A DNA stretch of 64,000 nt from an uncultured bacterium (GCA_964387845.1 CAYLXA010000011.1:32001-96000); one strand, 5' to 3'. Positions 7,194-64,000 are shown, counted from the stretch's first letter. Notes: generated by a model from the sequence alone, not told the origin. Program-made: numbers and translations.

Positions 7194-7219
7194 TTCGGTT
7201 AACTGAAGTTACAAAATTT

Positions 7220-7254
7220 AGGGGCAGTCCTTCGGGGCTGCCCCTATTTTTTTC
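7220..7254. terminator. Bidirectional Rho-independent terminator between convergent glnK and lpxB
   Basis: GC-rich hairpin AGGGGCAGtCC-TTCG-GGgCTGCCCCT followed by a T8 run. An A-run sits on the other side for the minus strand. Confidence 0.6.
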
Positions 7255-7255
7255 T

Positions 7256-8398
7256 TTAGAGGTTGTTGAGGATGGCTAGGGCCGCTCGCTCGGCAGCGCC
7301 TGAAGGCCCGATGTTGTTTCGGATTTCTTCCAAGTCGCGGATTATGCGGCTTCTTGATTCTGGATTCTGGATTAAATCCAAAATTGCTTTTGAGATTGCC
7401 GCAGGTTTTGCGTCATGCTGGATGAATTCCTGGATAATTTTCCGGCCCGCTGCGACATTGGCGAGGCCGATGTAGGGGATTTGAATCAGCATTCGCCCCA
7501 ATAGGTAAGTCGTCCAATGCGTCTTATAAAGAATCACAAAAGGCGTGAGTGTCAGTGCCGTTTCAAGTGTAGCAGTTCCGGATGTGACAATTGCGGCATC
7601 GGAGGCGTGCAGCATGGGTTCTACCGCCTTGCCGCGTATCCGCTTAATCGATAGCATAGGCTCGTAATTTTTGAGAATTGAATCGTAGATTTCGAGGCCT
7701 ACATTTTCACTTTCAGGAAGTAGAAACGAAACCGATTTGGTTTCTTGTGAAATAAGCCGGGCAGATTCCAGAATGACGGGCAAAATCCTTTCGATTTCTG
7801 TTTTGCGTGAGCCGGGCAGAAGTGCAATCACTTTTTCGGCGTTTTCCACGCCGAATTCTTTCTTTAACGCCTCTTTTGATTTTGTAACCGGCGCGCGCTC
7901 TGCGAGCGGATGGCCCACCCAAGTGACGGGAACGCCGGCTTCCTGATACATTTTCTCTTCGAAATGAAATAAAACAAGCATCCGGTCGACCGTTTCCTTG
8001 ATGAGATGAATCCGGTGCTTGGCCCAAGCCCAAAGCTGCGGTGAGACATAATAAAAAGTTTTGATCCGCCGGTTGATTTGTTTTGCAAAGCGCAGATTGA
8101 AGCCGGGGTAATCAATCAGGATGAGGCAGTCGGGCTTTAACTTCAAAACATGCTGCAGTGTGGCATAGAAAATTTTCCGGATTTTGAAATATTTAGCCAG
8201 CACGTCGCCAAATCCGATGGCAGCCAGCGCGCAAAGGTCATCAAAGAGCTTGACGCCCTCGGCTTCCATTAATTTTCCGCCGAGGCCTTCAAATTTTAAA
8301 CCGGGATTTTGCTTTTTAAGCGCACGGACAAGCTCGGCACCGCGTTGGTCGCCTGAAGGTTCCCCCGCGATGAGAAAAATGGTCTTAGATTCAGGCAT
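7256..8398 (-). CDS. lpxB: Lipid-A-disaccharide synthase
   Basis: IFLIAGEPSGD N-terminal motif, about 380 aa. The start is taken at MPESKTIF (8398), overlapping the upstream gene by 8 nt. The longer ORF running to 8518 is probably an artefact. Confidence 0.85.
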   Translation of the reverse strand: MPESKTIFLIAGEPSGDQRGAELVRALKKQNPGLKFEGLGGKLMEAEGVKLFDDLCALAAIGFGDVLAKYFKIRKIFYATLQHVLKLKPDCLILIDYPGFNLRFAKQINRRIKTFYYVSPQLWAWAKHRIHLIKETVDRMLVLFHFEEKMYQEAGVPVTWVGHPLAERAPVTKSKEALKKEFGVENAEKVIALLPGSRKTEIERILPVILESARLISQETKSVSFLLPESENVGLEIYDSILKNYEPMLSIKRIRGKAVEPMLHASDAAIVTSGTATLETALTLTPFVILYKTHWTTYLLGRMLIQIPYIGLANVAAGRKIIQEFIQHDAKPAAISKAILDLIQNPESRSRIIRDLEEIRNNIGPSGAAERAALAILNNL

Positions 8399-9335
8399 TG
8401 GAGTACTTTGGGGAATTTTTTTTGATATCGTCAACGATCTGAAGCCCGATTTTGAGCGCATCGCGGGCTTCCACATCAACTTTTCCGTCGGTTTTTCCGG
8501 AGAGAACCGCCTGGACAAAACTTTCGAGTTCGGCTTTGAGCGGTTCGCCTTTTTGGATTTCCAATTTTTCGCTCGTGATGCCCAAGATTCCTTTTTTAAA
8601 GATCTGGGCGGTTTGCGCTTGATAATCGAGAGAGATGTAAGCGTCTTCCTGAAAGATCCGGATTTTGCGCTGTTTGTCGGGCGTTAGGCGCGAGGCCGTT
8701 AAATCAGCAACAGTGCCGTTTTTGAACCGGATTCGCACATTGGCGATGTCTTCGTGCGGCGTGAGCACATTGATGCCGACACAGTCCATGAACGCAATTT
8801 CGGATTTGACGAGCTGAAGCACGATATCGATATCGTGAATCATCATGTCGAGCACAACGCCGCAGTCTTTGACACGGTCGGTGAAAGCGCTTAGGCGGTG
8901 AATTTCGAGGAAACGGATGTTTCTTGCAATTTTTTGAATTTTTTGAAGCCCGGCGTTGTGCCGTTCTACGTGACCGACTTGGAGAACGAGTTTCTTTTGC
9001 TTTGCGATTTCAATTAATTCATCCGCTTCACCCAGTTCAAGCGTGATTGGTTTCTCGATCAAGACATGCGTCCCGGCTTCCATAAAAGGTTTTGCTACTT
9101 CATAGTGGTAAGCGGTCGGTACGACAACGCTGACGGCGTCGACTTTTCCGATCAAATGGCGGAAATCGGTCGTAAATTGTGTTCCAAGCTCCCTGGCTTT
9201 TTCTTCTTTGGATTTATCGCGGTCGCAAAGAGCAATCAAGTCAACATTGGGAAGGGAGGCGTAAATCCGGGCGTGTTCTTTGCCCAGATGCCCGATTCCG
9301 ATAACAGCAACTTTCAATTTTTTACCTGTATTCAT
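8391..9335 (-). CDS. Gfo/Idh/MocA-family NAD(P)-dependent oxidoreductase, co-operonic with lpxB
   Basis: N-terminal Rossmann motif VAVIGIGHLGKEH, with the EKP and GHxxRH motifs of the Gfo/Idh/MocA family. 314 aa. Confidence 0.75.
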   Translation of the reverse strand: MNTGKKLKVAVIGIGHLGKEHARIYASLPNVDLIALCDRDKSKEEKARELGTQFTTDFRHLIGKVDAVSVVVPTAYHYEVAKPFMEAGTHVLIEKPITLELGEADELIEIAKQKKLVLQVGHVERHNAGLQKIQKIARNIRFLEIHRLSAFTDRVKDCGVVLDMMIHDIDIVLQLVKSEIAFMDCVGINVLTPHEDIANVRIRFKNGTVADLTASRLTPDKQRKIRIFQEDAYISLDYQAQTAQIFKKGILGITSEKLEIQKGEPLKAELESFVQAVLSGKTDGKVDVEARDALKIGLQIVDDIKKNSPKYSNA

Positions 9336-9395
9336 AACCGAGTCGGCATTTTATCAGACGGGGCTTGAAAAGCAAATTGATAAAGTTTGCCGCAA

Positions 9396-9424
9396 TTGAC
9401 TTTCGTTTTTGAATTGGTTAGTAT
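9396..9424 (+). promoter_or_regulatory. Candidate sigma-70 promoter (TTGACT, 17-nt spacer, TAGTAT) for msbA
   Basis: Hexamers read from the sequence in the divergent intergenic region. Confidence 0.3.
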
Positions 9425-9476
9425 GGCTCGTTTTCTCTAAAATGTGATGTGACCTTCATTTAGAAAGTTTTAGGAT

Positions 9477-11231
9477 ATGGGCGTCTATAAGCGGCTTTTA
9501 GGATATGTTTACCCGCACCGGCACAGGCTGGCGATGGCTGTGGTGTGCATGTTTTTCCTTTCTATATCGCAGGTACTGGTTTCGGCCGTGCTTTATATCG
9601 TCGTTAACGGCTTTTACAACGAAGGTTACGTTATTATAGAAAATATTCCCCACGCGCCGGATTTTGTGCAAGGAATCCGGTTTCCGGTCACCTGGATTCC
9701 CATTATAGTTGTCGGCGTCTTTTTATTTCGCGGTGTTTTTGATTACGCCTCCAATTACCAGATGGCAGCTGTTGGTATCCGCGCAATCCGGAAAGTGCGC
9801 GATGATTTGTATGAAAGGCTGGTTCATCTGTCGCTTGATTTTTATTCGCGCGGGCGTACCGGCGAATTGATGAGCCGCATCTTAAACGACGTCGGATTTA
9901 TCCAGGGCGGTATTACGGATGTGCTGGTCGACCTTGTCAAACAACCCTTCGTTATTTTGTTCAACATCCCCATGATTTTCATTTGGGGCGGGCCGGTTGC
10001 GATCGCGGCAGTTTTGGTATTTCCGATTGTGGTGATTCCGATTGCCGCACTCGGTAAGCAGCTGCGCGGACTGACGCGGAAAATGCAGGAACGCACCGCC
10101 GATATTTCATCGATGCTCGAAGAAACTTTTACCGGCATCCGAATCGTCAAAGCGTTTAACATGGAACAGCGGGAAATCGAAAAATTCAAAGGCGTTAACC
10201 GCAGCGTTTTCGAGTTTTTCAAAAAAACAATTCGTGTGACCGTGATTCAGCGCCCGATCATCGAAGTGTTTGCCGCAATCGGTGCCGGCACGGCAATTTG
10301 GTTTGGCTATCAACATTTGACCCCTGACCGTTTCGTAGCGCTCATCGGATCGCTTTTTATTTTCTACGAGCCGTTTAAAAAACTGAGCAAGGTCAATAGC
10401 ACGATTCAACAATCTATTGCGGCCGGAAACCGGATTTTTGAAGTGATGGATCAAGTGCCTTCCGTGCAGAGCAAGCCCAATGCGGCGAAACTCGCGGCGC
10501 CGATTCAATCGGTTTTGTTCGACAACGTTCATCTTTCCTATGAAACCGGCAGTGAAATATTGAGCGGCATCTCAATCGAAGTGAAAGCAGATCAAGTTTT
10601 GGCGATCGTGGGTCCGAGCGGTTCCGGGAAAACTTCCTTGGTGAATATGATTCCGCGTTTTTATGATCCGACCAAAGGAAGCATCAAGATCAACGGGATT
10701 GATATCCGTGATTGTGAATTGAAATCACTCCGTGAACAAATCGGCATTGTGTCGCAAGAAACTGTTTTGTTTAACACAACGGTCATGGAAAACATTGCTT
10801 ACGGAAAACCTTCCGCAACTTTAGAGCAGGTGATTGAAGCCGCTAAAGCTGCGTTTGCTGACGAATTTATACGAGCACTGCCGAATGGATACGGAACGAT
10901 CGTGGGCGAAAAGGGCGTCAAGCTTTCCGGCGGTCAGCGTCAACGGCTTTCGATTGCGCGCGCGCTTCTCAAAAATCCGCCTATTTTAATTTTGGACGAA
11001 GCTACGTCACAGCTGGATACTGAAAGCGAAAGACAGGTTCAGGCCGCGATTGACCGCCTGATGCAGGGAAGGACCGTTTTTGTGATTGCGCACCGGCTTT
11101 CGACCATTCAGAGCGCAGACCGGATTATTGTATTGGAACGGGGAAAGATTGTGCAGTCCGGAACAAACGACCGGTTGCTGCAAGAAGAAGGTCCCTACAA
11201 ACGCCTTTACAACCTACAGTTTAATATTTAG
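9477..11231 (+). CDS. msbA: ABC transporter permease/ATPase, lipid A flippase-like
   Basis: 584 aa. An N-terminal 6-TM domain is followed by Walker A GPSGSGKTS, the ABC signature LSGGQRQR and Walker B ILILDEATS. It sits in an lpx neighbourhood. Confidence 0.7.
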   Translation: MGVYKRLLGYVYPHRHRLAMAVVCMFFLSISQVLVSAVLYIVVNGFYNEGYVIIENIPHAPDFVQGIRFPVTWIPIIVVGVFLFRGVFDYASNYQMAAVGIRAIRKVRDDLYERLVHLSLDFYSRGRTGELMSRILNDVGFIQGGITDVLVDLVKQPFVILFNIPMIFIWGGPVAIAAVLVFPIVVIPIAALGKQLRGLTRKMQERTADISSMLEETFTGIRIVKAFNMEQREIEKFKGVNRSVFEFFKKTIRVTVIQRPIIEVFAAIGAGTAIWFGYQHLTPDRFVALIGSLFIFYEPFKKLSKVNSTIQQSIAAGNRIFEVMDQVPSVQSKPNAAKLAAPIQSVLFDNVHLSYETGSEILSGISIEVKADQVLAIVGPSGSGKTSLVNMIPRFYDPTKGSIKINGIDIRDCELKSLREQIGIVSQETVLFNTTVMENIAYGKPSATLEQVIEAAKAAFADEFIRALPNGYGTIVGEKGVKLSGGQRQRLSIARALLKNPPILILDEATSQLDTESERQVQAAIDRLMQGRTVFVIAHRLSTIQSADRIIVLERGKIVQSGTNDRLLQEEGPYKRLYNLQFNI

Positions 11232-11277
11232 CCTCAGTTTTCTTTGTTTTTATCTGTAAATAAGCTATAAATCCTGC

Positions 11278-11306
11278 TTGCTCCCATCAGGCGATATTGA
11301 TATAAT
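11278..11306 (+). promoter_or_regulatory. Candidate sigma-70 promoter (TTGCTC, 17-nt spacer, TATAAT) for the rpsB-tsf operon, followed by a ~175-nt leader
   Basis: Perfect -10 hexamer with acceptable -35 and spacing. The leader contains a 9-bp stem hairpin (11343-11367). Confidence 0.4.
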
Positions 11307-11481
11307 TTCCTACTTTTTGGTTTCCCGCTCGTTCCGCAGGTCTTCATGTTTCACGACAACATGAAGGGCTTGAAAGTGAAGATGCGACAGGCGATTGTCC
11401 CGCCTATTTTTCCTGAAAAACAATCATTGGATTGAGCAGGTTGTAAAAAATAGTTTGTTCACTAGGAGGTTTATTTTGTCA

Positions 11482-12336
11482 ATGTCAGTAACTTTGAAGC
11501 AATTGTTGGAAGCAGGCGTTCATTTTGGCCATCAAACGCGCCGGTGGAATCCCAAAATGGCGAAGTATATTTTTGGCGAGAAGAACGGAATTTATATCAT
11601 CAATCTCGAGAAAACGCTCACAGCGCTTCAGTCTGCCTGCGAATATGTGAAGCAGGCGGTTTCGCGCGGCGAAGTGATTCTCTTTGTCGGTACCAAAAAG
11701 CAGGCGCAGGAATCCATCCGCACCGCAGCCGACGAGCTGCAAATGCCTTACGTCAATCAACGCTGGCTGGGCGGCATGCTGACCAACTATGAAACAATCC
11801 GCAAAAGTCTCCACAAGCTTGATGAAATCGATACGATGGAAAGAGAAGGCACCTATCAATTTCTTGCCAAGAAAGAAGTGAACCGGATCAAGAAAAAAGG
11901 CGAGAAGCTCAACAAGGTGCTTTCCGGAATCCGCAACATGAAGCGTTTGCCTGGCGCCGTTTTCATTATTGATCCCACAAAAGAAGAAATCGCAGTCCAA
12001 GAAGCCCGCAAGCTGGGCATTCCGATCGTTGCATTGATCGATACCAATTGCGATCCGGATTTGATCAATCATCCGATTCCAGGCAATGACGATGCGATCC
12101 GCTCCATCAAGCTGATTGTCGAAGCTGTGAAGCAAAGCGTGATTGAAGGCCGTAACGAACATCAACGCATTGCCGACGAAAAGGCACTTGCCGAAGCGGC
12201 CGAGACCGCTAAGCAGATGCAAGAATCCAGCGAAGAAGCTCAGGAAGAAATCTTGGAAATTGCAGATGAAGTTGTCGCAAAATTAGATGATGAAGACAAA
12301 CCCCGCGCCAAGAAAGCGCGCGTTAAAAGCGATTAA
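11482..12336 (+). CDS. rpsB: 30S ribosomal protein S2
   Basis: N-terminus [35 protein letters not shown] at 11464. The ORF-track start at 11395 is an upstream TTG extension. Confidence 0.92.
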
Positions 12337-12348
12337 GGAATTTAGATC

Positions 12349-13185
12349 ATGACTACTAATGTACATTCTTCTCAAGTGAAAGAACTCCGCGATATTACCG
12401 GAGCCGGCATGATGGACTGCAAGCAGGCGCTGCTTGAAACCGGCGGTGATATCGAAAAAGCAAAAGACTATCTCCGGAAAAAAGGCGTTGCCTCAGCCGA
12501 TAAGCGTGCGTCGAAAGAAGCTAAAGACGGTATGATTTTTATCCAGAACGACGGAAAAACCGGCGCCATGGCCGAAGTCAATTCCGAAACTGATTTCGTT
12601 GCACGGACAGATGATTTTCAAAAACTAGGCGCAGCAGCAGTCAAAGCAGTTGCCGAGAAAGGCGAAGCTGCGATTGAGTCGGATGCGATTCAAACACAGG
12701 CAAAAGAAGTCAGCGGAAAAATAGGCGAGAAGATTTCGGTCCGCCGCGCTGTCCGTTTTCAAACGAACGCAGGCCTCGTGGTTTCGTATCGCCACCACAA
12801 TCAAAAAATCGGTGTGATGGTTGAGCTTGCATTTTCGAATGCGGCACTGGCCCAAAATGCGGAAGTAGAAAAGCTGGGCAAAGATATCGCCATGCAGTCC
12901 GCCGCTCTTCGGGCTCCGTTTTTGAGCAAAGATCAAGTATCTGCCGAATTTTTAGAGCGTGAAAAATCGATTTTCAGGGATCAAGTCAAGGACAAACCGG
13001 CCAATGTGCAGGATAAAATTATTGACGGCAAATTACAGAAGCGCTTCGAAGAAGTTTGTCTGCTCGAGCAGAAATCCGTGATTGATCCGGCAAAATCCAT
13101 CGCGCAATTGGTGGATGCGCTCGGGAAAAAACTTGGAAGCCCGATCACCGTAAAACGTTTTCAGCGCTTTGAAATCGGTACTTGA
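12349..13185 (+). CDS. tsf: Elongation factor Ts
   Basis: Begins with a UBA-like N-terminus (VKELRDITGAGMMDCKQAL). 278 aa. Follows rpsB. Confidence 0.92.
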   Translation: MTTNVHSSQVKELRDITGAGMMDCKQALLETGGDIEKAKDYLRKKGVASADKRASKEAKDGMIFIQNDGKTGAMAEVNSETDFVARTDDFQKLGAAAVKAVAEKGEAAIESDAIQTQAKEVSGKIGEKISVRRAVRFQTNAGLVVSYRHHNQKIGVMVELAFSNAALAQNAEVEKLGKDIAMQSAALRAPFLSKDQVSAEFLEREKSIFRDQVKDKPANVQDKIIDGKLQKRFEEVCLLEQKSVIDPAKSIAQLVDALGKKLGSPITVKRFQRFEIGT

Positions 13186-13215
13186 TATCATTGAAAATTT
13201 CAAAGCGTTTATTAA
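13166..13215 (+). terminator. Hairpin (11-bp stem CGCTTTGAAAT/ATTTCAAAGCG) spanning the tsf stop, followed by a T-rich tract; possible partial terminator or attenuator between tsf and pyrH
   Basis: Inverted repeat read directly from the sequence. A second 10-bp stem hairpin lies at 13229-13280. Confidence 0.3.
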
Positions 13216-13329
13216 TATGAATCAAGTACCGCACTTACTACGCATCGGACCTTATTTGTTTATTAATGAGGTAAGTGCGGCGCTGAATAATCAATAGAAC
13301 ACAGCCTGAAACCAACGGAGCCTGTCTCT

Positions 13330-14049
13330 ATGAAAAGTAAAAGAGCCGCGTTTAAGCGCGTTGTTCTGAAAATCAGCGGTGAAGCACTGCAGGGAAGCCA
13401 GCATTACGGCATTGACCACAAAGTGGTTCTCACCATCGCCAAACAAATCAAAACCGTCAACGATTCCGGCGTTGAAATCGCTTGCGTTATCGGTGCGGGC
13501 AATATTTTCCGCGGCATGCAGGCTGTTCGTCAAGGGATGGACCGCGTTAATGGTGACTACATTGGCATGCTGGCGACGATGATCAATTCGCTTTCACTGC
13601 AAGATGCGCTCGAAAAGTTGGGCGTGCATACCCGCGTGATGACGGCCATCCCGATGGAAAAGCTAGCGGAGCCTTACATTCGCCGCCGCGCACTCCGGCA
13701 CTTGGAGAAACGGCGTGTGGTTATTTTCGCCGCCGGAACCGGCAATCCTTATTTCACGACCGACACCGCCGCTGCACTGCGCGCCATTGAAATCAATGCC
13801 GATGCGGTATTAAAAGCAACGCGGGTCGACGGTGTTTATTCGGGCGATCCATTGAAGGACAAAAAGGCTAAAAGATTTGTCCGGCTTAAATATTTAGATG
13901 TTCTGAAAAAACAGCTGCAGGTCATGGATGCGACCGCAGTGTCATTGTGTATGGAAAACAAGCTTCCGATTGTCGTATTTAATTTAAATACGCCGGGCAA
14001 TATTGAAAAAGTAATGCGCGGCGATTCGATCGGAACCGTCGTTAGTTAA
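13330..14049 (+). CDS. pyrH: Uridylate (UMP) kinase
   Basis: [11 protein letters not shown]…GAGNIFRG signature motifs. 239 aa. Confidence 0.92.
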
Positions 14050-14069
14050 TTCAGCAAGCGAGGATTATT

Positions 14070-14642
14070 ATGCAAACCGCAACTTCTGCCAAATCTGTTC
14101 TCGATGAAACCCAGAACCGCATGCAAAAATCCGTTGATGCGACCCATAGCGAATTCCGCAGTATCCATACGGGCCGTGCTTCCATTGCATTGGTCGAAGC
14201 TATTCCGGTTGAGTGCTACGGATCATCCAAGCCGCTAAAAGGTATCGCGTCCATCACAACGCCGGATGCTAAGACGATCAATATTCAACCTTGGGATCCG
14301 TCGATCATTAGCGCAATCGATAAGGCCATCGTCAAAGCCGAGCTTGGCTTGGTTCCTTCAAATGACGGCCGCGTGGTTCGGATTAAAATTCCGTCACTGA
14401 CGGCAGAGCGGCGCAAAGAATTGGATAAAATTATTCGCAAAATCGCAGAAGACGGGCGCGTTTCAATCCGCAACATCCGCCACGAAGCAAATGAAGCGGT
14501 GAAGCGGCTTGAAAAAGCGAAGACGGTCAGTGAAGATGAATCGCGGGGTACTCAGAAAAAAGTTCAGGAGGCCACCGATCGCTTTACGAAAATGGTTGAT
14601 GAGCTTCTGGCGAAGAAGGAAGTTGAAATTCAGGAAGTTTAA
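14070..14642 (+). CDS. frr: Ribosome recycling factor
   Basis: 190 aa, typical RRF sequence. GAGGA RBS upstream. Confidence 0.92.
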   Translation: MQTATSAKSVLDETQNRMQKSVDATHSEFRSIHTGRASIALVEAIPVECYGSSKPLKGIASITTPDAKTINIQPWDPSIISAIDKAIVKAELGLVPSNDGRVVRIKIPSLTAERRKELDKIIRKIAEDGRVSIRNIRHEANEAVKRLEKAKTVSEDESRGTQKKVQEATDRFTKMVDELLAKKEVEIQEV

Positions 14643-14649
14643 AGACACA

Positions 14650-14679
14650 GTATCTAGTATCTCGTATCTAGTATCTAGT
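14650..14679. repeat. Tandem heptamer array (GTATCTN) x4, left arm of a long inverted structure
   Basis: GTATCTA GTATCTC GTATCTA GTATCTA GT was read directly from the sequence, immediately after the frr stop. Confidence 0.7.
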
Positions 14680-14743
14680 TGAACTTATTATTATATGAAT
14701 AGATATTGTTTCTTTCACGTTTTCCTTCCGTTCAATTCTTTAC

Positions 14744-14778
14744 TAGATACTAGATACCAGATACAAGATACGAGATAC
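14744..14778. repeat. Tandem heptamer array (NAGATAC) x5, the reverse complement of the left arm and so its right arm
   Basis: TAGATAC TAGATAC CAGATAC AAGATAC GAGATAC was read directly from the sequence. It ends 9 nt before tRNA-Lys. Confidence 0.7.
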
Positions 14779-14787
14779 GGAAATAAC

Positions 14788-14861
14788 GGGCCCATAGCTC
14801 AGTCTGGTAGAGCACTGCCCTTTTAAGGCAGGTGTCGTTGGTTCAAATCCAACTGGGCTCA
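14788..14861 (+). tRNA. tRNA-Lys (anticodon TTT)
   Basis: Cloverleaf folded by hand. The acceptor GGGCCCA/TGGGCTC is followed by the discriminator A. The anticodon stem CTGCC/GGCAG carries the loop CTTTTAA. The T-loop is GGTTCAAATCC. Confidence 0.85.
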
Positions 14862-14961
14862 ATTTGATTTCGGATTGTGGAGTGCAGATTGAGAGAATAG
14901 ATTGATGATTGTTGATTCCGAAATCCGAAATTAACAATCCGAAATTGTATAATTTGTTAAT

Positions 14962-15035
14962 GTCCCCATCGTCTAGCCTGGTCAGGACAAGAGCTTTTCA
15001 AGCTCTCGGCAGGGGTTCAAATCCCCTTGGGGACA
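14962..15035 (+). tRNA. tRNA-Glu (anticodon TTC)
   Basis: The acceptor GTCCCCA/TGGGGAC is followed by A. The anticodon stem AGAGC/GCTCT carries the loop TTTTCAA. A GTCTAG D-arm typical of tRNA-Glu is present. Confidence 0.85.
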
Positions 15036-15051
15036 CTTTTCTCCGGTATTC

Positions 15052-16266
15052 ATGCCAAAATTTATTCGCTCAAACCTGATTATTTTTGCTGCGGGGTTTT
15101 TGCTCATCTCTATTTTTTCCACTATTCGTTACGAACGGTTTGCATCGAAACGCCAGTACGGGGATTTTCACGTTTACTATGTAACCGGTGAACGGATGCT
15201 GGCAGGCCAATCGATTTATGTCGATGAAACCGAAAAAGTAACGCCCTATAAATATTCACCGCTCACTGCATCTTTCTTTTCCTTACTCGCACTTTCAAAC
15301 GAAAGAACCGCAGCCGGTGTTTGGCACTGCCTCAATCTGGTCTTTTTGCTGGTAAGCGTAATCGCCGGGGGAGGGCTTGCGCGAAAAATTTCAGACGGTC
15401 ACGGAAAATATTTCGTTGCATGGTCTTCGATTTTAGCCGTTATCGGAATTTCGCCGGCCATTCTCCATTGCATGAATTCGGGGCAGGTGGGAATCGCGAT
15501 TTTATTTTGCTATGTGCTGGGCGTTTATTTCACCTCCCGCGATCGGGACATCGCCGCCGGATTTTTCTTTGCGCTATCGTGCATGTTTAAATATCTTCCG
15601 ATTTTGATTTTGCCTTATTTTATATGGCAGAAAAAATGGAAACTGGTTTGGTCTATGATCGGCTGGCTGTTTGTGCTTCATTTTTTGCCGGCGCTTTGGC
15701 TCGGCTGGGATATCAATCTTCGGTATCTCCGGCAATTTCTTCCGTTTTTGACCGGAACCACGCTGGATCATATTTCTCTCCTGGATTTCAAAAATCAGTC
15801 CATGTGGGCGTATTTATACCGGCTGTTTTTCTATGATTTGGGCTTGTTTGAAATCAGAAATCACCCGCACTGGATCTTAGCTTTCGGGGCAATCCTATTC
15901 ACCGCGCTTTACGGACTTGTGATTTCTAGGACGCGTAGAGGATTTCTAGTGCTAGGCTGTTCGTTGCTGGCAATTTTGATCGTGATCTTCAACCCTAATG
16001 CTTGGAAGCATAATTTTGTCCTCTTTTTGCTTCCATATCAAATTTTACTTGCCGCGGCGCTGCAGCTTGGTTGGCAAAGCCGGCAAGCCACGCTTTTGAT
16101 GCTGGTCAGCATCTTATTTTTCGCCTCAAACCAGTCTCTGGTCGGTTGGGGCGGCCGGTTGGAACTGATGTCTTTATCGATTTTGCTTCTGGCCGGGCTG
16201 GTTCTATTCGCCGGATTGCTTCTCAGCCGGTTCCCTCAGGATCCTGCCCCAAAACACAACCTTTAG
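15052..16266 (+). CDS. Polytopic membrane protein, GT87/DUF2029-like (GT-C fold) glycosyltransferase candidate
   Basis: 404 aa with more than 10 predicted TM helices. A DFHVYY motif near the N-terminus resembles the DUF2029/PimE-like family. Family assignment is from memory and is moderate. Confidence 0.5.
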   Translation: MPKFIRSNLIIFAAGFLLISIFSTIRYERFASKRQYGDFHVYYVTGERMLAGQSIYVDETEKVTPYKYSPLTASFFSLLALSNERTAAGVWHCLNLVFLLVSVIAGGGLARKISDGHGKYFVAWSSILAVIGISPAILHCMNSGQVGIAILFCYVLGVYFTSRDRDIAAGFFFALSCMFKYLPILILPYFIWQKKWKLVWSMIGWLFVLHFLPALWLGWDINLRYLRQFLPFLTGTTLDHISLLDFKNQSMWAYLYRLFFYDLGLFEIRNHPHWILAFGAILFTALYGLVISRTRRGFLVLGCSLLAILIVIFNPNAWKHNFVLFLLPYQILLAAALQLGWQSRQATLLMLVSILFFASNQSLVGWGGRLELMSLSILLLAGLVLFAGLLLSRFPQDPAPKHNL

Positions 16267-16405
16267 GGCTTTATCTGACCCTTTAACCCAATATCTAGTA
16301 TTACCCAAAAAGTCTTTCTAAAGCCGTTAAGTTTCTCTAAGTTGTTGACGTACTTGTTGTTTAGGCGATATCGGTGATTCAAAAGTCGCATTTTGGAGGT
16401 GGCTC

Positions 16406-16549
16406 ATGATCACTAAAATGTTAAAAGTATTTGTTCTGACTGTTGCCATGACCTCAACTGTGGTAACCGCATCTTTCGCTTTTGACGGGAAAGATGCGCT
16501 TTCTGGTGTAGTTGTCAAATCAACACTTAAAGCAACGACTTGTCTTTGA
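16406..16549 (+). CDS. Unannotated small ORF (47 aa) with a signal-peptide-like N-terminus, a candidate secreted peptide
   Basis: A GGAGG RBS lies 6 nt upstream of the ATG. The peptide is MITKMLKVFVLTVAMTSTVVTASFA|FDGKDALSGVVVKSTLKATTCL. Not in the ORF track because it is under 60 aa. Confidence 0.3.
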   Translation: MITKMLKVFVLTVAMTSTVVTASFAFDGKDALSGVVVKSTLKATTCL

Positions 16550-17177
16550 CTATCTCTTGAAACCTTCCCGATCTTTTTTCTTCATAACAGCAGCAGGCTT
16601 TTTACTCTTTATTTTGATTTCACACCATCCAGCGGTTCATAGTTTGGATGTTTATTGGATGGGCATATTATACCGTAGCGATATTTCGTTCTTTAATATT
16701 GTGTTTATTCCGTTTATTTTGTGGGGATCGCCTCAAATTATAATCCCCGCGTTTCTTTTGTTATCATTCTGGTTTTATCAGCAAAAGAACTTTAAAGCGG
16801 CTTATTTATGTCTTGCGTCTCTTATAATCGCAACAGGCCTTGAGTTTGTGCTTAAGAATATTTTATGGGTTCCCAAGCCTTCCACAGAGTCATTCGGATC
16901 GCGGTTTCCATTTAAATGGACAGTTGCTTCTTACAAAACCCAGTCGTCATTGCCTAGCGGGCATGTTCTTAGAACGGTTCTTTTTATCTTATTCCTCGTT
17001 CATTGGATTCCTGCGATTCGTAACCGCAAGGCCCTGAAAGTATTTTTAATGTTCTTGCCCTTCATTACAGCTTTTGCTGCAGTCTATTACGGTGCGCACT
17101 GGACAAGAGATGCCGTCGCAGGAGCGTGGCTTGCGGTCTTGGCTTTTCTAGTCTGTGATAGATACGTTGCCTCTTGA
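16512..17177 (+). CDS. PAP2-superfamily (acid phosphatase / lipid phosphate phosphatase) membrane protein
   Basis: PAP2 motifs PSGH (SLPSGHV) and H-x3-D (AHWTRD) are present, with several TM helices. The start is uncertain (TTG at 16512 or an internal ATG at 16656). Confidence 0.65.
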   Translation: MSNQHLKQRLVFDYLLKPSRSFFFITAAGFLLFILISHHPAVHSLDVYWMGILYRSDISFFNIVFIPFILWGSPQIIIPAFLLLSFWFYQQKNFKAAYLCLASLIIATGLEFVLKNILWVPKPSTESFGSRFPFKWTVASYKTQSSLPSGHVLRTVLFILFLVHWIPAIRNRKALKVFLMFLPFITAFAAVYYGAHWTRDAVAGAWLAVLAFLVCDRYVAS

Positions 17178-17306
17178 ATGTTCGGCTGCCTTGACACTCT
17201 ACTTTCCTTATGATAATTTAAGCCCACTTTTTAAAAATCAAACTCATGTAGTTTGATTTTTAGCGTTAGTTTCCGGACGCTAAATTCCAAAAGGAGGGAC
17301 TTCAGC

Positions 17307-17825
17307 ATGGCAAAAAAGCTGGAAGAAAAGATTTTAGACGTTGATGCGAGTATGCAGGGAACGATCACATTTCGTGATCCTGTTAACCTGCGTATTAACG
17401 GAAGTTTTGAAGGCCGTTTGGATGTCCGAGGGAATTTGACCATTGGTGAAAATGCTAACGTGAAAGCCGATATCAGAGGCGATAAAATCTTAGTTGCAGG
17501 AAAAGTGACCGGTAATATCACGGCGTCTGCCAGTCTGGCGGTTATATCGCCTGCGGTGATTCGCGGCAACATTAAGTCCCCGATTTTCAGTGTTGCTGAA
17601 GGTTCCGTTATTGAAGGTCAAGTATCGATGACAAATTTACAAAATTTAGATGCCAATAGCACGCTGTCGTTGCGCGATTTAGCCCAGTACCTTGAAGTTG
17701 AGATGCGCGTCATTGAAGAGTGGGCGCGTGAGAAAAAAATTCCCGGCCGTCAAGAAAACGGCGAGTGGCGGTTTAATAAAGCCACGATTGATAAATGGGT
17801 GCAGGACGAAAAAGTAAAATTGTAA
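17307..17825 (+). CDS. Bactofilin (DUF583 polymer-forming beta-helical cytoskeletal domain) fused to a C-terminal excisionase-type helix-turn-helix (HTH_17) DNA-binding domain
   Basis: Residues ~20-120 show the bactofilin repeat pattern (…RINGSFEGRLDVRGNLTIGENANVKADIRGDKILVAGKVTGNITA…). The C-terminal 50 aa (LSLRDLAQYLEVEMRVIEEWAREKKIPGRQENGEWRFNKATIDKWV) is a typical excisionase/MerR-like HTH. AAGGAGGG RBS before the ATG at 17307. Confidence 0.65.
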   Translation: MAKKLEEKILDVDASMQGTITFRDPVNLRINGSFEGRLDVRGNLTIGENANVKADIRGDKILVAGKVTGNITASASLAVISPAVIRGNIKSPIFSVAEGSVIEGQVSMTNLQNLDANSTLSLRDLAQYLEVEMRVIEEWAREKKIPGRQENGEWRFNKATIDKWVQDEKVKL

Positions 17826-17876
17826 AGTTGATCCGATTCTTTCCGATTTTGTTCCACCAAAGATTTTGCATTTGAA

Positions 17877-18170
17877 ATGCTGCTAACCGAAGAAGAAGTC
17901 CAGAATTATTTAGGAGTTGACCGTTCTCATATTGAAAGGTTGATGAAACGCGGGAAACTCACGGCTTTTCGTGTCGGCGGCTCCTATCTCCGATTCCGCA
18001 AAGAGGAAGTCATTGCACTTAAAGCAGGTAAGCGCTTTGTGCCGGCCGAACAAATGGGCCGCAGGAGTTGGCTGGATCGTGCGCGTGATTTTTGGAAGTT
18101 TTACAGTTTTTATGTCCTCTCGTCGATTTTGATTGCACTCGCGGTTCTCCTGATTATCCAATACATCTAA
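17877..18170 (+). CDS. Excisionase-type HTH (HTH_17) DNA-binding protein with a C-terminal transmembrane anchor
   Basis: The N-terminal segment LTEEEVQNYLGVDRSHIERLMKRGKLTAFRVGGSYLRFRKEEV is the HTH_17 signature. The C-terminal segment FYVLSSILIALAVLLIIQYI is a hydrophobic helix. Confidence 0.6.
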   Translation: MLLTEEEVQNYLGVDRSHIERLMKRGKLTAFRVGGSYLRFRKEEVIALKAGKRFVPAEQMGRRSWLDRARDFWKFYSFYVLSSILIALAVLLIIQYI

Positions 18171-18175
18171 TATTC

Positions 18176-18556
18176 ATGACCGTTCCGTTCCAAATTGGCG
18201 TTGATATCGTGAGCGTGCGCCGGATGGAAGAATCCATCAAGCGTCACGGAAAATCCTTTCTCGATAAAGTATTCACGGCCGGCGAGCAATCTTATTGCGA
18301 AAAAAAGCGCAATAAGTATGAAAATTACGCTGCACGGTTTGCTGCCAAAGAAGCAGTGATTAAAGCCAAGGGCGGCGGTGCGGGCCGGATGCGTTTTAAA
18401 GATATCGAAGTCAAACGAGGCAAGAACGGCAAGCCATTTATTTCGATTACTCCTCAAGTCCGGCGTGAAATGTTCATCAAACCAAAAGCCGAATTTGAGC
18501 TGACTATGGCGCACGAACGGGAATTTGCGATCGCAACCGTCCTGATGTCAGCCTAG
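18176..18556 (+). CDS. acpS: Holo-[acyl-carrier-protein] synthase (4'-phosphopantetheinyl transferase)
   Basis: GVDIVSV(R)R…F(A)AKEA(V)IKA motifs typical of AcpS. About 126 aa from the ATG at 18176. Confidence 0.85.
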   Translation: MTVPFQIGVDIVSVRRMEESIKRHGKSFLDKVFTAGEQSYCEKKRNKYENYAARFAAKEAVIKAKGGGAGRMRFKDIEVKRGKNGKPFISITPQVRREMFIKPKAEFELTMAHEREFAIATVLMSA

Positions 18557-18560
18557 CGCT

Positions 18561-19268
18561 ATGCGTTATCTGATCGTTAACGCCGACGATTTTAATCTCA
18601 CCCAAGGTATTTCCCGCGCGGTTTTTTGCGCGCATGACCGCGGCATTGTGAATTCCACAAGCGTGATGATTAATTTTCCGCTGTCCTCATATCAAATATC
18701 GGGCCTCAGTAAACGCCCGGGCCTTAGCGTTGGGCTTCATTTGAATGTCACATCGGGTTCTCCGAAATTCAAAAAGGCAAGCGCATACCTATCCGGCAAA
18801 TTTGACCCGCATGTTTTATTCGCTGAATATGAATCACAGATCAAAAAGTTTCAAACAGTGTTTAAAAGGAAGCCGGATCATTTAGATACGCATCATCACA
18901 TTCATGCATCGCCAAAAGTTGCGTTGGTCTTATCCAAAATTTCGAGAAAATATAAAATCCCGGCCCGTCGGTCGGCTACGCTTCGAAGCGCAGCGACAAC
19001 CGATTATTTTTTTGGGAATTTATCGCCGCAAAAATATTGGACTCACACAAGTTTGCTGACGATTCTTGAAAACTTACCGCAGGGGACGAGCGAAATTATG
19101 TGTCATCCCGGTTTTGTTGATTCCGACCTGCGTTCCAAAAGTTCGTTCTTAAAGGGGCGCGAATGCGAGCGCAAGCTTTTTTCGAAACGATCATGGCGCT
19201 TGTTTTTGCGCCGCCACGGCATTCAACAGGTAAAATTTTCAAGCCTGCTTCCGGGCTCTGTGTTATAA
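18561..19268 (+). CDS. ChbG/HpnK/YdjC-family carbohydrate deacetylase
   Basis: N-terminal LIVNADDFNLTQG (YdjC signature NADDFG). 235 aa. Confidence 0.7.
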   Translation: MRYLIVNADDFNLTQGISRAVFCAHDRGIVNSTSVMINFPLSSYQISGLSKRPGLSVGLHLNVTSGSPKFKKASAYLSGKFDPHVLFAEYESQIKKFQTVFKRKPDHLDTHHHIHASPKVALVLSKISRKYKIPARRSATLRSAATTDYFFGNLSPQKYWTHTSLLTILENLPQGTSEIMCHPGFVDSDLRSKSSFLKGRECERKLFSKRSWRLFLRRHGIQQVKFSSLLPGSVL

Positions 19269-19278
19269 TACGCGGCTT

Positions 19279-20049
19279 ATGAGAGTCCTGATTACCAATG
19301 ACGATGGTATTCACTCGCCGGGGTTAAGGGCGATTGTGGATGCGATCCACAAAGAAGCCGAATGCCTGGTAGTAGCACCGCACAAGGAAAGGTCGGCGAC
19401 GGCGCATTCTATTTCTCTTTATGATGAAATTTGGGTCGAATCGGTTCACATCGGGGACGGGCTAAAAGGATATTCGGTCGAAGGAACGCCGGCTGATTGT
19501 GTGAAATTTGCGTTTGCGGAGCTTTTGAAGAAGAAAGTCGACCTCATTATATCGGGCATTAACCTGGGGTTAAATACGGGTATCAGCGTTTATTATTCAG
19601 GGACTGTGTCGGCGGCGCGTGAAGGATTGATCAACGGCGTTCCGTCGATCGCCATTTCGCAAGGCAAGCAGCAAACGCGCGATTTCGCATATGCCGGGAA
19701 GCTCGTATCAAAGTTGGTGCATGGCTATAAAAATTTACATTTTCCGAAAGATACATTTTTAAATATCAATGTACCTCCCGTCGAATCTCAGCAGGTGAAA
19801 GGGATTCGAGTGACGAAACAGGCGCATTCACGGTTTGACGAATGGTTTGAGGAAATTAAAAAATCCGGATCTAACGGCCGGAAACCGTATCAAGTCCGCG
19901 GCGATATCGAAATTTTAAGTCCGGACGGCACGAGCGATGAAGAAGCGATTCGAGAAGGTTATGTGTCGATGACGCCACTTCTTTTGGATTCAACGCATTA
20001 CAAGCAGATGTCCCATTTTGAGAAATGGGTGAGGGATAACGGAATTTAG
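19279..20049 (+). CDS. surE: 5'/3'-nucleotidase SurE
   Basis: MRVLITNDDGIHSPGL N-terminus. 256 aa. Confidence 0.9.
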   Translation: MRVLITNDDGIHSPGLRAIVDAIHKEAECLVVAPHKERSATAHSISLYDEIWVESVHIGDGLKGYSVEGTPADCVKFAFAELLKKKVDLIISGINLGLNTGISVYYSGTVSAAREGLINGVPSIAISQGKQQTRDFAYAGKLVSKLVHGYKNLHFPKDTFLNINVPPVESQQVKGIRVTKQAHSRFDEWFEEIKKSGSNGRKPYQVRGDIEILSPDGTSDEEAIREGYVSMTPLLLDSTHYKQMSHFEKWVRDNGI

Positions 20050-20066
20050 TTTTTTGGAAATTTGAA

Positions 20067-20258
20067 TTATTTCGGAACGGCGCCGTCAAGTGTCTCGAAC
20101 ACAATGGTGACGAGGCTGTGGCAGCGCGGGCACTTGATTTGCTTGAAAGCTTGGATGTTGTCGTGTTTGGGCCGGTACATAATGCTCAAGATCTTGGTTG
20201 AGAACTTGGCTTCTTCGCCGGACCACTGACAGGATGTACAAGCGTATGTCTGTTTCAT
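20067..20258 (-). CDS. Small zinc-ribbon protein (two CxxC pairs), hypothetical
   Basis: 63 aa with CTSC…CPRC. It converges on the surE end. Confidence 0.4.
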   Translation of the reverse strand: MKQTYACTSCQWSGEEAKFSTKILSIMYRPKHDNIQAFKQIKCPRCHSLVTIVFETLDGAVPK

Positions 20259-20469
20259 CGTGTAGAGTTGTATCGGCAGCGGGTTAGCGAACTTAAGAAA
20301 TTTGCAGGAAATTTTTAAGATTTTTTATCAGTAATACTAGATTTAGTGGTATCTAAGGTAAAATACCACAGGATTATGGGTAGCCCCGCGTCGCTGACTT
20401 TGTCAGCTCCTGGGGCGAACATCTTCCTTTATGAATAAGCACCTGAGACTTTTAAGGCAGAAGATATTC

Positions 20470-20542
<73 letters not shown>

Positions 20543-23329: not shown

Positions 23330-23337
23330 CAGCGATG

Positions 23338-23414
23338 CTTCAAGCTACAAGACTCAAGCTTCAGGCTTCAAGATAGTGCGTTTCTGCTTGTAGCTTGTAG
23401 CCTGTAGCTTGCAG
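23338..23414. repeat. Inverted arrays of tandem heptamers, (CTTCAAG-like) x5 (23338-23372) and (CTTGTAG) x4 (23387-23414), around a 14-nt loop
   Basis: Left arm CTTCAAG CTACAAG ACTCAAG CTTCAGG CTTCAAG. Right arm CTTGTAG CTTGTAG CCTGTAG CTTGCAG (rc = CTACAAG). Read directly from the sequence, between the leuS stop and the GH35 start. Confidence 0.7.
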
Positions 23415-45266: not shown

Positions 45267-45470
45267 ATGAAACTCAGAATTAACGGCGATTGGATGGAGA
45301 TCAAGGAAGGCCTTAACTTATCGGGCTTACTAAAAGATATGCAAATAGCGCCTCGGGGCGTGGCGGTAGAACTGAATAAACAAGTGCTTTCGCCGAAAGA
45401 ACCATGGGAGAACATCATGCTGAAAGAAGGCGATATGCTTGAAATTGTCCACGCTGTGGCGGGGGGCTGA
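45267..45470 (+). CDS. thiS: ThiS/MoaD-family sulfur-carrier (ubiquitin-like beta-grasp) protein ending in Gly-Gly
   Basis: 67 aa, MKLRINGDWMEI…LEIVHAVAGG. C-terminal GG. No thiF/thiG/moaE in the window. Confidence 0.6.
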   Translation: MKLRINGDWMEIKEGLNLSGLLKDMQIAPRGVAVELNKQVLSPKEPWENIMLKEGDMLEIVHAVAGG

Positions 45471-61482: not shown

Positions 61483-61650
61483 TTCAGTTAGTTCTTGAAA
61501 AGGACTAATTTCCTAACTTCTTAAAGACTTTTCTAACAAAAAATCTCGTCACGACAGATGTAAATCTGGTGATACTAGATTTTTCATGTTTTTTAAATGC
61601 CGGACATTGACACAGTCAATTTGGTTGTGTAACTTTTACGCAAACCAGTC

Positions 61651-63999: not shown

Positions 64000-64000
64000 A

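Follow-up and report, generated by a model that had tools for sequence, protein, structure and literature searches.

The nonanucleotide ATACTAGAT occurs six times in a stretch of 64,000 nucleotides from an uncultured bacterium (GCA_964387845.1, CAYLXA010000011.1:32001-96000), called the window in what follows: on the minus strand at positions 14652, 14666 and 16293, and on the plus strand at positions 14747, 20334 and 61572. An initial annotation of the window took these copies for a shared operator read by a dimeric helix-turn-helix (HTH) regulator, a reading that is only partly supported by the analysis reported here. We propose instead, giving the composite account as a whole an even chance of being right, that the 9-mer marks a heptad, ATCTNGT (complement ACNAGAT), found in three different settings: a hairpin made of heptad repeats between frr and tRNA-Lys, a conserved box at two loci, and one arm of a terminator-like hairpin.

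The annotation was right that the motif is non-random and confined to intergenic DNA, and a check of each site in the sequence finds all its coordinates correct. Dinucleotide shuffles of the window give an expectation of 0.13 copies, and at most one in any shuffle, against the six observed; the non-coding, non-tRNA DNA, about 3.7 kb or 5.8% of the window, holds all six. Under a Markov model of this intergenic DNA, 0.025 copies are expected; the probability that at least four regions contain the word is 1.5e-8, or 0.002 after Bonferroni correction over all 9-mers, and ATACTAGAT ranks first among the 9-mers shared by spacers, with no rival close. This per-word test was substituted for a cruder look-elsewhere test, which compares the maximum number of regions sharing any 9-mer with that in shuffled spacers: there, p is only about 0.05, because low-complexity words made of A- and T-runs dominate the statistic. 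The depletion of CTAG, also part of the annotation, is strong, with 36 occurrences in the window where base composition predicts 248, and 8 of these 36 fall within the motifs. The claim of at least five upstream regions holds for the recurrence but not for the count: the six copies represent four independent loci, and three of the copies come automatically with a tandem 7-nt unit detected by Tandem Repeats Finder (TRF). Another 9-mer, AGGCGATAT, is found at 16360-16368, in the 11290s and in the 45400s, three regions classed as intergenic (P about 2e-6, uncorrected); one of them is probably a small ThiS-like open reading frame (ORF), around 45268-45470.

The core had been described as near-palindromic, but the symmetry of ATACTAGAT is limited to CTAG, and the motif thus lacks the dyad symmetry that a dimeric HTH regulator would call for. 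A 12-bp near-palindrome, ACTAGATTTAGT, is present in one of the two boxes described below (box C) and none in the other (box B), and the only true inverted pair among the motif sites lies in the region 61562-61582. The 9-mer itself contains a 7-nt periodicity, AT.....AT, and a longer word of 14 nt, GTRATACTAGATWT, is common to the three single copies, allowing for one mismatch at most.

The frr protein of the window has its best matches, at no more than 74% identity, in metagenome-assembled genomes of Candidatus Omnitrophota. The syntenic loci used for comparison are L037/L045 (a 439-kb Joint Genome Institute contig), L042, L043/L046, L050/L051, L052, L053 and L001, together with the more distant L059, L060 and L063; W denotes the window, and the Logan contig L036 is identical to window positions 8226-20499. 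The positions of the features under discussion are collected in Table 1.

Table 1. Features discussed in the text, with positions counted from the first letter of the window.
Feature	Position	Strand	Remarks
Left array (GTATCTN)x4.4	14649..14679		7 nt past frr stop; 5' stem arm; TRF, inverted repeats I1-I3
Loop between arrays	14680..14740	+	AT-rich, 61 nt
Right array (NAGATAC)x5.4	14741..14778		N = T,T,C,A,G; 3' arm; ends 9 nt before tRNA-Lys (TRF, ARAGORN)
tRNA-Lys	14788..14861
Third inverted pair ATTTCGG / TCCGAAA	14866..14945		tRNA-Lys-tRNA-Glu spacer; inverted repeats I7, I19
Box B ACCCAATATCTAGTATTAC	16286..16304	+	20 nt past GT87 stop; 102 nt before small-ORF start at 16406
Sigma-28/FliA-type match TTAAGTTC-N11-GCCGATAC	20270..20296	-	for the 63-aa Zn-ribbon ORF at 20067-20258
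Box C ACCACTAAATCTAGTATTAC	20331..20350	-	reads toward Zn-ribbon gene; plus strand is GTAATACTAGATTTAGTGGT, upstream of tRNA-Ala
Second inverted heptad pair (GCTTCAA)x5 / (GCTTGTA)x3.7	23337..23411		leuS-GH35 spacer; TRF, fold
Hairpin AAAAATCTCGTCACGACAGAT / ATCTGGTGATACTAGATTTTT with T-run	61539..61584	+	9-mer at 61572-61580 in 3' arm; inverted repeat I16

Two heptad arrays occupy the spacer between frr and tRNA-Lys. The left one reads GTATCTA GTATCTC GTATCTA GTATCTA G, and carries the 9-mer on the minus strand, twice exactly and once as a variant; the right one reads TACTAGA TACTAGA TACCAGA TACAAGA TACGAGA TAC. In both, TRF finds a period of 7, with 90-91% matches. The array unit is NAGATAC, its seventh base being free, and CTAG appears only if N = T: three of the six copies of the 9-mer are thus a by-product, since their CTAG arises through repetition where N = T. 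What had been taken for two sites upstream of tRNA-Lys are really the arms of one inverted heptad hairpin, and in relatives the stem remains although the unit changes and CTAG is absent. Over 30 nt, the arms show 90-93% complementarity, and the spacer folds with a minimum free energy of -44.3 kcal/mol (z = -6.8); every array-bearing spacer, in the window and in the relatives, folds as a long stem.

Arrays stand at the same place in other genomes, with units GTATCTC/GAGATAC in L037 and L042, GTATTTC/GAAATAC in L050, GTACTTC/GAAGTAC in L052 and GTGAATC/GATNCAC in L043. Units and copy numbers differ among the six genomes that have arrays in this spacer, and the arrays persist at the same spot over a deep divergence, the neighbouring GT87 protein being down to 48% identity. 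Since position, 7-nt period and inverted symmetry are kept while the unit drifts, the conserved thing is the hairpin and not the CTAG word, and we conclude that the arrays are a structural, hairpin-forming element of heptamer repeats rather than a CTAG recognition site. L001 and L053 have no arrays there: their spacers are short, with a GC-rich hairpin in L001. Two comparisons bear on how the arms evolve. The left arm of W pairs with its own right arm at -40.3 kcal/mol and with a foreign one at -28.0, and the left arm of L052 at -24.8 and -17.2 respectively; own-partner pairing is far better than foreign pairing, so the arms co-evolved in these two genomes. In five assemblies of the L037 population, from different samples, the arrays are identical, with no copy-number variation, so the frr/tRNA-Lys arrays are not hypervariable.

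The inverted pair of heptanucleotide repeats would then fold into an imperfect stem of about 30 bp, of which selection would keep the stem, the 7-nt period and the position while the sequence of the unit turns over. Its role may be that of a structural part of the frr/tRNA-Lys transcript, for insulation, processing or stabilisation; alternatively, it could be a cruciform beside the tRNA promoter. The loop holds a match to the sigma-70 consensus, TTGAAC-N17-GATATT (14680-14708), read by eye, and by this match the arrays may flank a tRNA promoter. The arms are probably held alike through slippage and template switching between them. Searches of Rfam, at gathering and at permissive thresholds, return only tRNAs and chance hairpin matches. 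The NAG-N4 RNA repeats bound by proteins such as HutP or TRAP were considered and rejected: the arrays of the relatives have no NAG pattern, and the units found elsewhere are unrelated. Further, in L050 (9316-9492), a 75-nt unit is repeated 2.3 times with 99% identity just upstream of, and into, the 5' end of tRNA-Lys, yielding partial copies of that end plus its leader.

Inverted heptad arrays are also found elsewhere. W and L042 both have the leuS-GH35 pair, and L037 lacks it; at the equivalent of the tRNA-Lys-tRNA-Glu pair, L037 has GATTNNN / AATCNNN units. L042 has an inverted pair AAAGTTA/TAACTTT between surE and the Zn-ribbon gene, and L059 a pair of TTTTAAC type near leuS. Among the 16 Omnitrophota loci examined, 7 is the commonest repeat period.

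The second setting is that of the copies at 16293 and 20334, which are the cores of a box of about 20 nt, ACCAC-N-A-N-ATCTAGTATTAC. An alignment of box B (plus strand) with box C (minus strand) extends over some 20-30 nt. Box B is conserved at the orthologous position in L037, L042, L043, L050 and L052, and box C in L037 and L042, and partially in L059. Over eight sequences, the invariant positions on the strand of ATACTAGAT are A.AC.A.AT.T; CTAG itself is variable, with CTAA, CTTG and CTAC occurring in its place. The boxes share their orientation with respect to the genes: B points toward the operon of the small ORF, PAP2 and the bactofilin-HTH_17 fusion, C toward the minus-strand Zn-ribbon gene, and the two units converge. 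Downstream of both come an A-run and then a TTAAGTT element, 22 and 34 nt away; 3' of box B, the A-run is at 16307-16311, and TTAAGTTT-N11-TGACGTAC follows at 16327-16353. In L042, box C stays next to the Zn-ribbon gene though the tRNAs sit on the opposite strand, and L043 retains box B although its arrays have diverged from the box sequence, which implies that arrays and boxes are under different constraints. L060 and L063 have no box, though they keep the HTH_17 and Zn-ribbon genes.

From these comparisons, the box is plausibly a sequence-constrained upstream element, most simply a putative protein-binding site: it would be a candidate site for a sequence-specific DNA-binding protein acting on the two converging units. 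The idea of a shared operator keeps some support at these two copies, with their conserved orthologous positions, their common orientation toward two putative promoters and the location of one of them upstream of the HTH_17 operon, and is not supported at the others. The annotation had also placed each copy upstream of a plus-strand start; the copy at 20334 suits the minus-strand Zn-ribbon gene at least as well as tRNA-Ala. As for the HTH_17 proteins, proposed as binders, proximity is their sole link to the box, which distant relatives lack while retaining the genes.

In consensus folds, box B lies outside the predicted pairs, while box C may pair with AGGATTATGG around a conserved GTGGT/ACCAC stem, with several G.U pairs, a pairing unsupported by single-sequence folds in W and L037. 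The segment of about 95 nt from box B to the 47-aa ORF (16313-16405) is strongly conserved in five genomes, including the stretches CTTTCTAAAGCCGTTAAGTTTCT, TTGTCGTAC and GTTTAGAC; its weak consensus fold has one compensatory pair, and it has no Rfam match. Two other identifications were rejected. Boxes B and C could be inverted repeats bounding an invertible or mobile segment of 4 kb, but 5 of 14 positions differ between them in L037, and 5 of 14 in L042, so their evolution is not concerted, and the segment contains no recombinase gene. Comparison with the consensuses of IHF, Fis, Fur, LexA, tetO, Ter/RTP and dif sites gave nothing convincing.

The Zn-ribbon gene has a candidate promoter of its own between its start and box C. 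The match listed in Table 1 agrees with the sigma-28 consensus TAAAGTTT-n11-GCCGATAA (PMC2859248) at 13 of 16 positions, with exact spacing, and includes the TTAAGTT element; a match of this type lies upstream of every Zn-ribbon ortholog, in W, L037, L042, L059, L060 and L063. In the window it would give a leader of about 5 nt only; in L037 and L042 the leader has some 25 nt more, with a GGGGA Shine-Dalgarno sequence. There are no flagellar genes in the window. The Zn-ribbon protein (CxxC...CxxC) has the same sequence, at 100% identity, in W, L037 and L042, neighbouring proteins being at 43-92%; its family, with 56 clusters and no Pfam family, is found in Omnitrophota only, and its gene is always convergent with the bactofilin-HTH_17 / HTH_17 / acpS / ydjC / surE operon.

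The third setting is that of the copy at 61572. The hairpin that contains it has arms of 21 nt (z = -3.0), with A-runs and T-runs on its flanks, and its stem starts 57 nt past the stop codon of an ArsC-family gene and is followed by TTTTTCATGTTTTTT. It thus has the stem-loop, the T-run and the position downstream of a stop that define an intrinsic terminator, with a stem that is AU-rich and of doubtful strength. In the relatives, ComEC comes next after ArsC, the spacer is unrelated and the 61539-61584 region is absent. This copy, which had been counted among the operators, would then belong to a hairpin specific to the window, of which it forms one arm and which is most simply read as the terminator of the ArsC-family gene. 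The gene that follows, for a secreted beta-helix protein resembling NosD and pectate lyases (61651-64000), stands after ArsC in this genome only, and is a lineage-specific insertion or rearrangement.

Several observations weigh against the composite account. Co-evolution of the arms, as judged by own versus foreign pairing, is not evident in L043 or L050. Left arm and loop are 100% identical over 113 nt between L037 (9461-9573) and L042 (8515-8627), where flanking genes are at about 80-83%, and yet the right arm shows 5 changes; the identity reflects either very strong constraint or recent exchange, and the asymmetry between the arms, which a plain stem does not predict, hints at a sequence-specific function or at recent recombination. 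Neither the fold energies of the plus and minus strands nor the counts of G.U pairs show a strand bias in the stems, and a function as RNA is thus no better supported than one as DNA. In about 365 kb of window and relatives, a model of the box recovers only the training sites and the L052 ortholog of box B; the boxes have neither dyad symmetry nor a candidate binder, which weighs on the idea of a regulon operator, and the sigma-28-like match near box B is a weaker one with a poor -10 part. Lastly, the copy at 61572 agrees with box C at 13 of 14 positions, closest to box C yet placed in a hairpin like the arrays, and thus stands between the two classes; and the variable positions 5 and 7 of the array unit ATCTNGT are variable in the boxes too. 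These last two coincidences would fit a single recognition factor better.

Such a factor is the substance of the main rival to the composite account, a single heptad-binding protein, which we consider rather improbable: one protein would read ATCTNGT everywhere, cooperatively on the arrays flanking the tRNA-Lys promoter, in the manner of the omega repressor, and weakly or singly at 16293, 20334 and 61572. The regulon would be small, and the binder might be a neighbouring HTH_17 or Zn-ribbon protein. In its favour, the 9-mer is common to all copies and a 14-mer to the single ones, the same positions vary in arrays and orthologous boxes, and a span of 6 kb around the two HTH_17 genes holds three of the four loci, with box B upstream of their operon; the full identity of left arm and loop between L037 and L042 also suits protein-binding or promoter DNA better than a stem, and arrays of direct and inverted heptads are a proven design for operators and centromeres (PMC9499535). 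However, the array unit is GTACTTC in L052 and GTGAATC in L043, where box B keeps its sequence, and inverted heptad arrays with unrelated units elsewhere show that arrays need no such sequence. The direct repeats to which proteins of the HTH_17, BldC or Xis type bind measure about 9-10 bp (PMC5859096, PMC7498355), against 7 bp here; no ribbon-helix-helix gene is found in Pfam scans of 30 of the roughly 59 ORFs of the window, nor in the gene tables of the relatives; and distant relatives hold HTH_17 and Zn-ribbon genes without the box. A bolder form of the same idea, to which we assign a low probability, makes ATCTNGT the recognition unit of a chromosomal heptad-binding protein belonging to this Omnitrophota clade, with the arrays around the tRNA-Lys promoter as a high-occupancy cluster, the boxes as single sites, and, as binder, one of the unusual neighbours retained in synteny: the fusion of bactofilin and HTH_17, the HTH_17 protein with a membrane anchor, or the fully conserved Zn-ribbon miniprotein. 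If it were true, the locus would be a DNA-tethering, centromere-like or global stable-RNA control site, and not a plain hairpin.

The word could also be a promoter element, an unlikely explanation in our estimate, since it holds a sigma-70-type -10 hexamer on either strand: TAGATT on the plus strand, for tRNA-Ala and perhaps for tRNA-Lys and the beta-helix gene, and TAGTAT on the other, for the small-ORF operon and the Zn-ribbon gene. Reading by eye gives TTAAGA-N17-TAGATT upstream of tRNA-Ala (20315-20343) and TTTACC-N17-TAGTAT on the minus strand at box C, and the sequence from box to start codon is conserved, as expected of a 5' leader. Both hexamer readings were rejected: orthologs lose the essential A2 and T6 (TTGTAT, TTGTGC, TACATC, TAAATC), the -35 candidates are missing or fall inside the variable hairpin loop, a promoter scan does not list the sites, and downstream of the copy at 61572 there is a better candidate, TTGACA-N17-TAACTT. 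It is also conceivable, though unlikely, that nothing here has a function: the genome would be prone to 7-nt microsatellites, the arrays would be neutral products of slippage, and the single copies would be their seeds or remnants. Heptamer simple-sequence repeats are over-represented in many bacteria, and ascribed to polymerase slippage (PMC4692102); the 7-nt periodicity inside the 9-mer and the coming and going of the leuS/GH35 pair point the same way. Against this stand the persistence of the arrays next to a GT87 gene of such divergence, the perfect identity of left arm and loop where genes are at about 82%, the lack of length polymorphism in the five assemblies of one population, and the conservation of boxes at two loci in several genomes. 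Least credible of all is a target of restriction-modification or methylation, which the annotation had offered as an alternative, or the remnant or end of a small mobile element (such as a MITE or a repetitive extragenic palindrome, REP). A CTAG core in a CTAG-poor genome would agree with it, as would the lineage-specific changes beside two copies: an insertion of about 95 nt and a change of tRNA strand near 20334, and a window-specific gene after 61572. However, the orthologous boxes show CTAA, CTTG or CTAC instead of CTAG, the sites hold orthologous positions in diverged genomes, as recent insertions do not, no transposase, RAYT or methyltransferase gene is seen near the copies, and some 365 kb contain no extra ones.

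The composite account of hairpin, box and terminator arm can be set against known systems. Heptameric repeats are over-represented in bacteria, lie between genes and sometimes form inverted pairs, their function being unknown and polymerase slippage their suggested origin (PMC4692102; PMC4679880); examples are the GGGAATC repeats of Xanthomonas and the GGGGAYT repeats of Nostoc (PMC4692102), and the TAACTGA repeats of Beggiatoaceae, Cyanobacteria and Bacteroidetes (PMC4679880). Intergenic heptanucleotide repeats such as the short tandemly repeated (STRR) heptamers of cyanobacteria resemble the arrays described here in their head-to-tail 7-nt units, which number from 2 to about 5 and have one or two positions that are degenerate, in their strictly intergenic placement near gene ends, in their occasional inverted pairs capable of forming stem-loops, and in a location that is kept while copy number and unit vary among relatives. 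The present units differ in being AT-rich (GTATCTN) and unable to form quadruplexes, each locus has its own unit instead of a single one for the whole genome, and essentially all strong arrays are inverted pairs. The length polymorphism of contingency loci, a feature that not all definitions include, is not observed in the five assemblies. As far as the searched literature shows, the heptamer-repeat phenomenon is new for Omnitrophota.

The operators, or parS sites, of the ribbon-helix-helix protein omega of plasmid pSM19035 are likewise made of contiguous 7-bp units, direct and inverted, next to promoters. The omega unit is WATCACW, whereas the unit here is ATCTNGT and is not conserved among relatives (GTACTTC, GTGAATC). 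At least four contiguous heptads are needed for full omega activity (PMC9499535), and each arm here has 4-5; the two arrays are, however, 61 nt apart and contiguous only within each arm, the promoter between them is a consensus match, and the ribbon-helix-helix gene of that system has no counterpart among the ORFs scanned. BldC, Xis and Apl are small winged-HTH proteins that form head-to-tail oligomers on variable numbers of direct repeats (PMC5859096), but these repeats measure about 9-10 bp, lie one helical turn apart and, for BldC, read AATTXXXX(C); the HTH_17 proteins of the window are placed by their match to Pfam HTH_17 only, on which any kinship with the BldC family rests. Intrinsic terminators and REP palindromes are also intergenic stem-loops right after stop codons, and bidirectional terminators have A- and T-runs on their flanks like the 61539-61584 hairpin. 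The frr/tRNA-Lys stem differs from terminators by its 61-nt loop and the lack of a T-run, and neither the GTAG/CGTC tag nor the RAYT gene of REP elements is seen here. Ordinary GC-rich terminators also exist in this genome, for example at 7213-7252.

The elements that carry the 9-mer are thus variations on known intergenic kinds, heptanucleotide stem-loop repeats and an ordinary conserved upstream box, and we rate the finding as ordinary to moderately interesting; the only mildly surprising part is the deep positional conservation combined with sequence turnover, in an uncultured phylum. It does illustrate that a tandem-repeat artefact, a conserved box and a hairpin arm may together look like one statistically striking motif, and experiments would be misdirected if the whole were treated as a single operator. 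It also indicates that the uncultured Omnitrophota make many of their large intergenic hairpins from 7-nt repeats, one of which has been kept before tRNA-Lys across deep divergence as its sequence turned over: a clean natural case for the role of heptamer repeats and the upkeep of matched arms. In a lineage whose regulation is almost unknown, the box and the promoter of sigma-28 type before the gene for an invariant Zn-ribbon miniprotein are two concrete candidate regulatory elements that can be tested.

The window as a whole is a housekeeping region with nearly all genes on one strand. The order is rpsB-tsf-pyrH-frr, tRNA-Lys, tRNA-Glu and the GT87 membrane glycosyltransferase; then the 47-aa ORF, PAP2, the bactofilin-HTH_17 fusion, HTH_17 with a C-terminal hydrophobic segment, acpS, ydjC and surE; then the 63-aa Zn-ribbon ORF on the minus strand, tRNA-Ala, tRNA-Leu, leuS and the GH35 glycosidase; and finally KDO (3-deoxy-D-manno-octulosonate), ilv, leu and aro genes, dprA, topA, lipopolysaccharide heptosyltransferases, the ArsC-family gene and the beta-helix protein. 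In the first HTH_17 protein (17307-17822), a bactofilin polymerisation domain is fused to HTH_17; in the second (17877-18167), the hydrophobic segment that follows HTH_17 is interpreted as a membrane anchor. These two unusual DNA-binding proteins have about 92% identity in relatives, their synteny is held across distant Omnitrophota, and phmmer finds no further HTH_17 protein in the window beyond these two (17307-18167).

Two differences concern the tRNAs next to box C. The strand of tRNA-Ala and tRNA-Leu is flipped in L042 (14369-14545) with respect to W and L037, the Ala-then-Leu order of coordinates being kept, which may be a rearrangement or an assembly artefact and is no simple joint inversion. 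Between the conserved GTGGT/ACCAC hairpin and tRNA-Ala, the window has a specific insertion of about 95 nt (20383-20469), where L037 has the tRNA directly after the hairpin; the insertion holds a perfect hairpin, GCTGAC-TTT-GTCAGC, inside GCCCCG...CTGGGGC.

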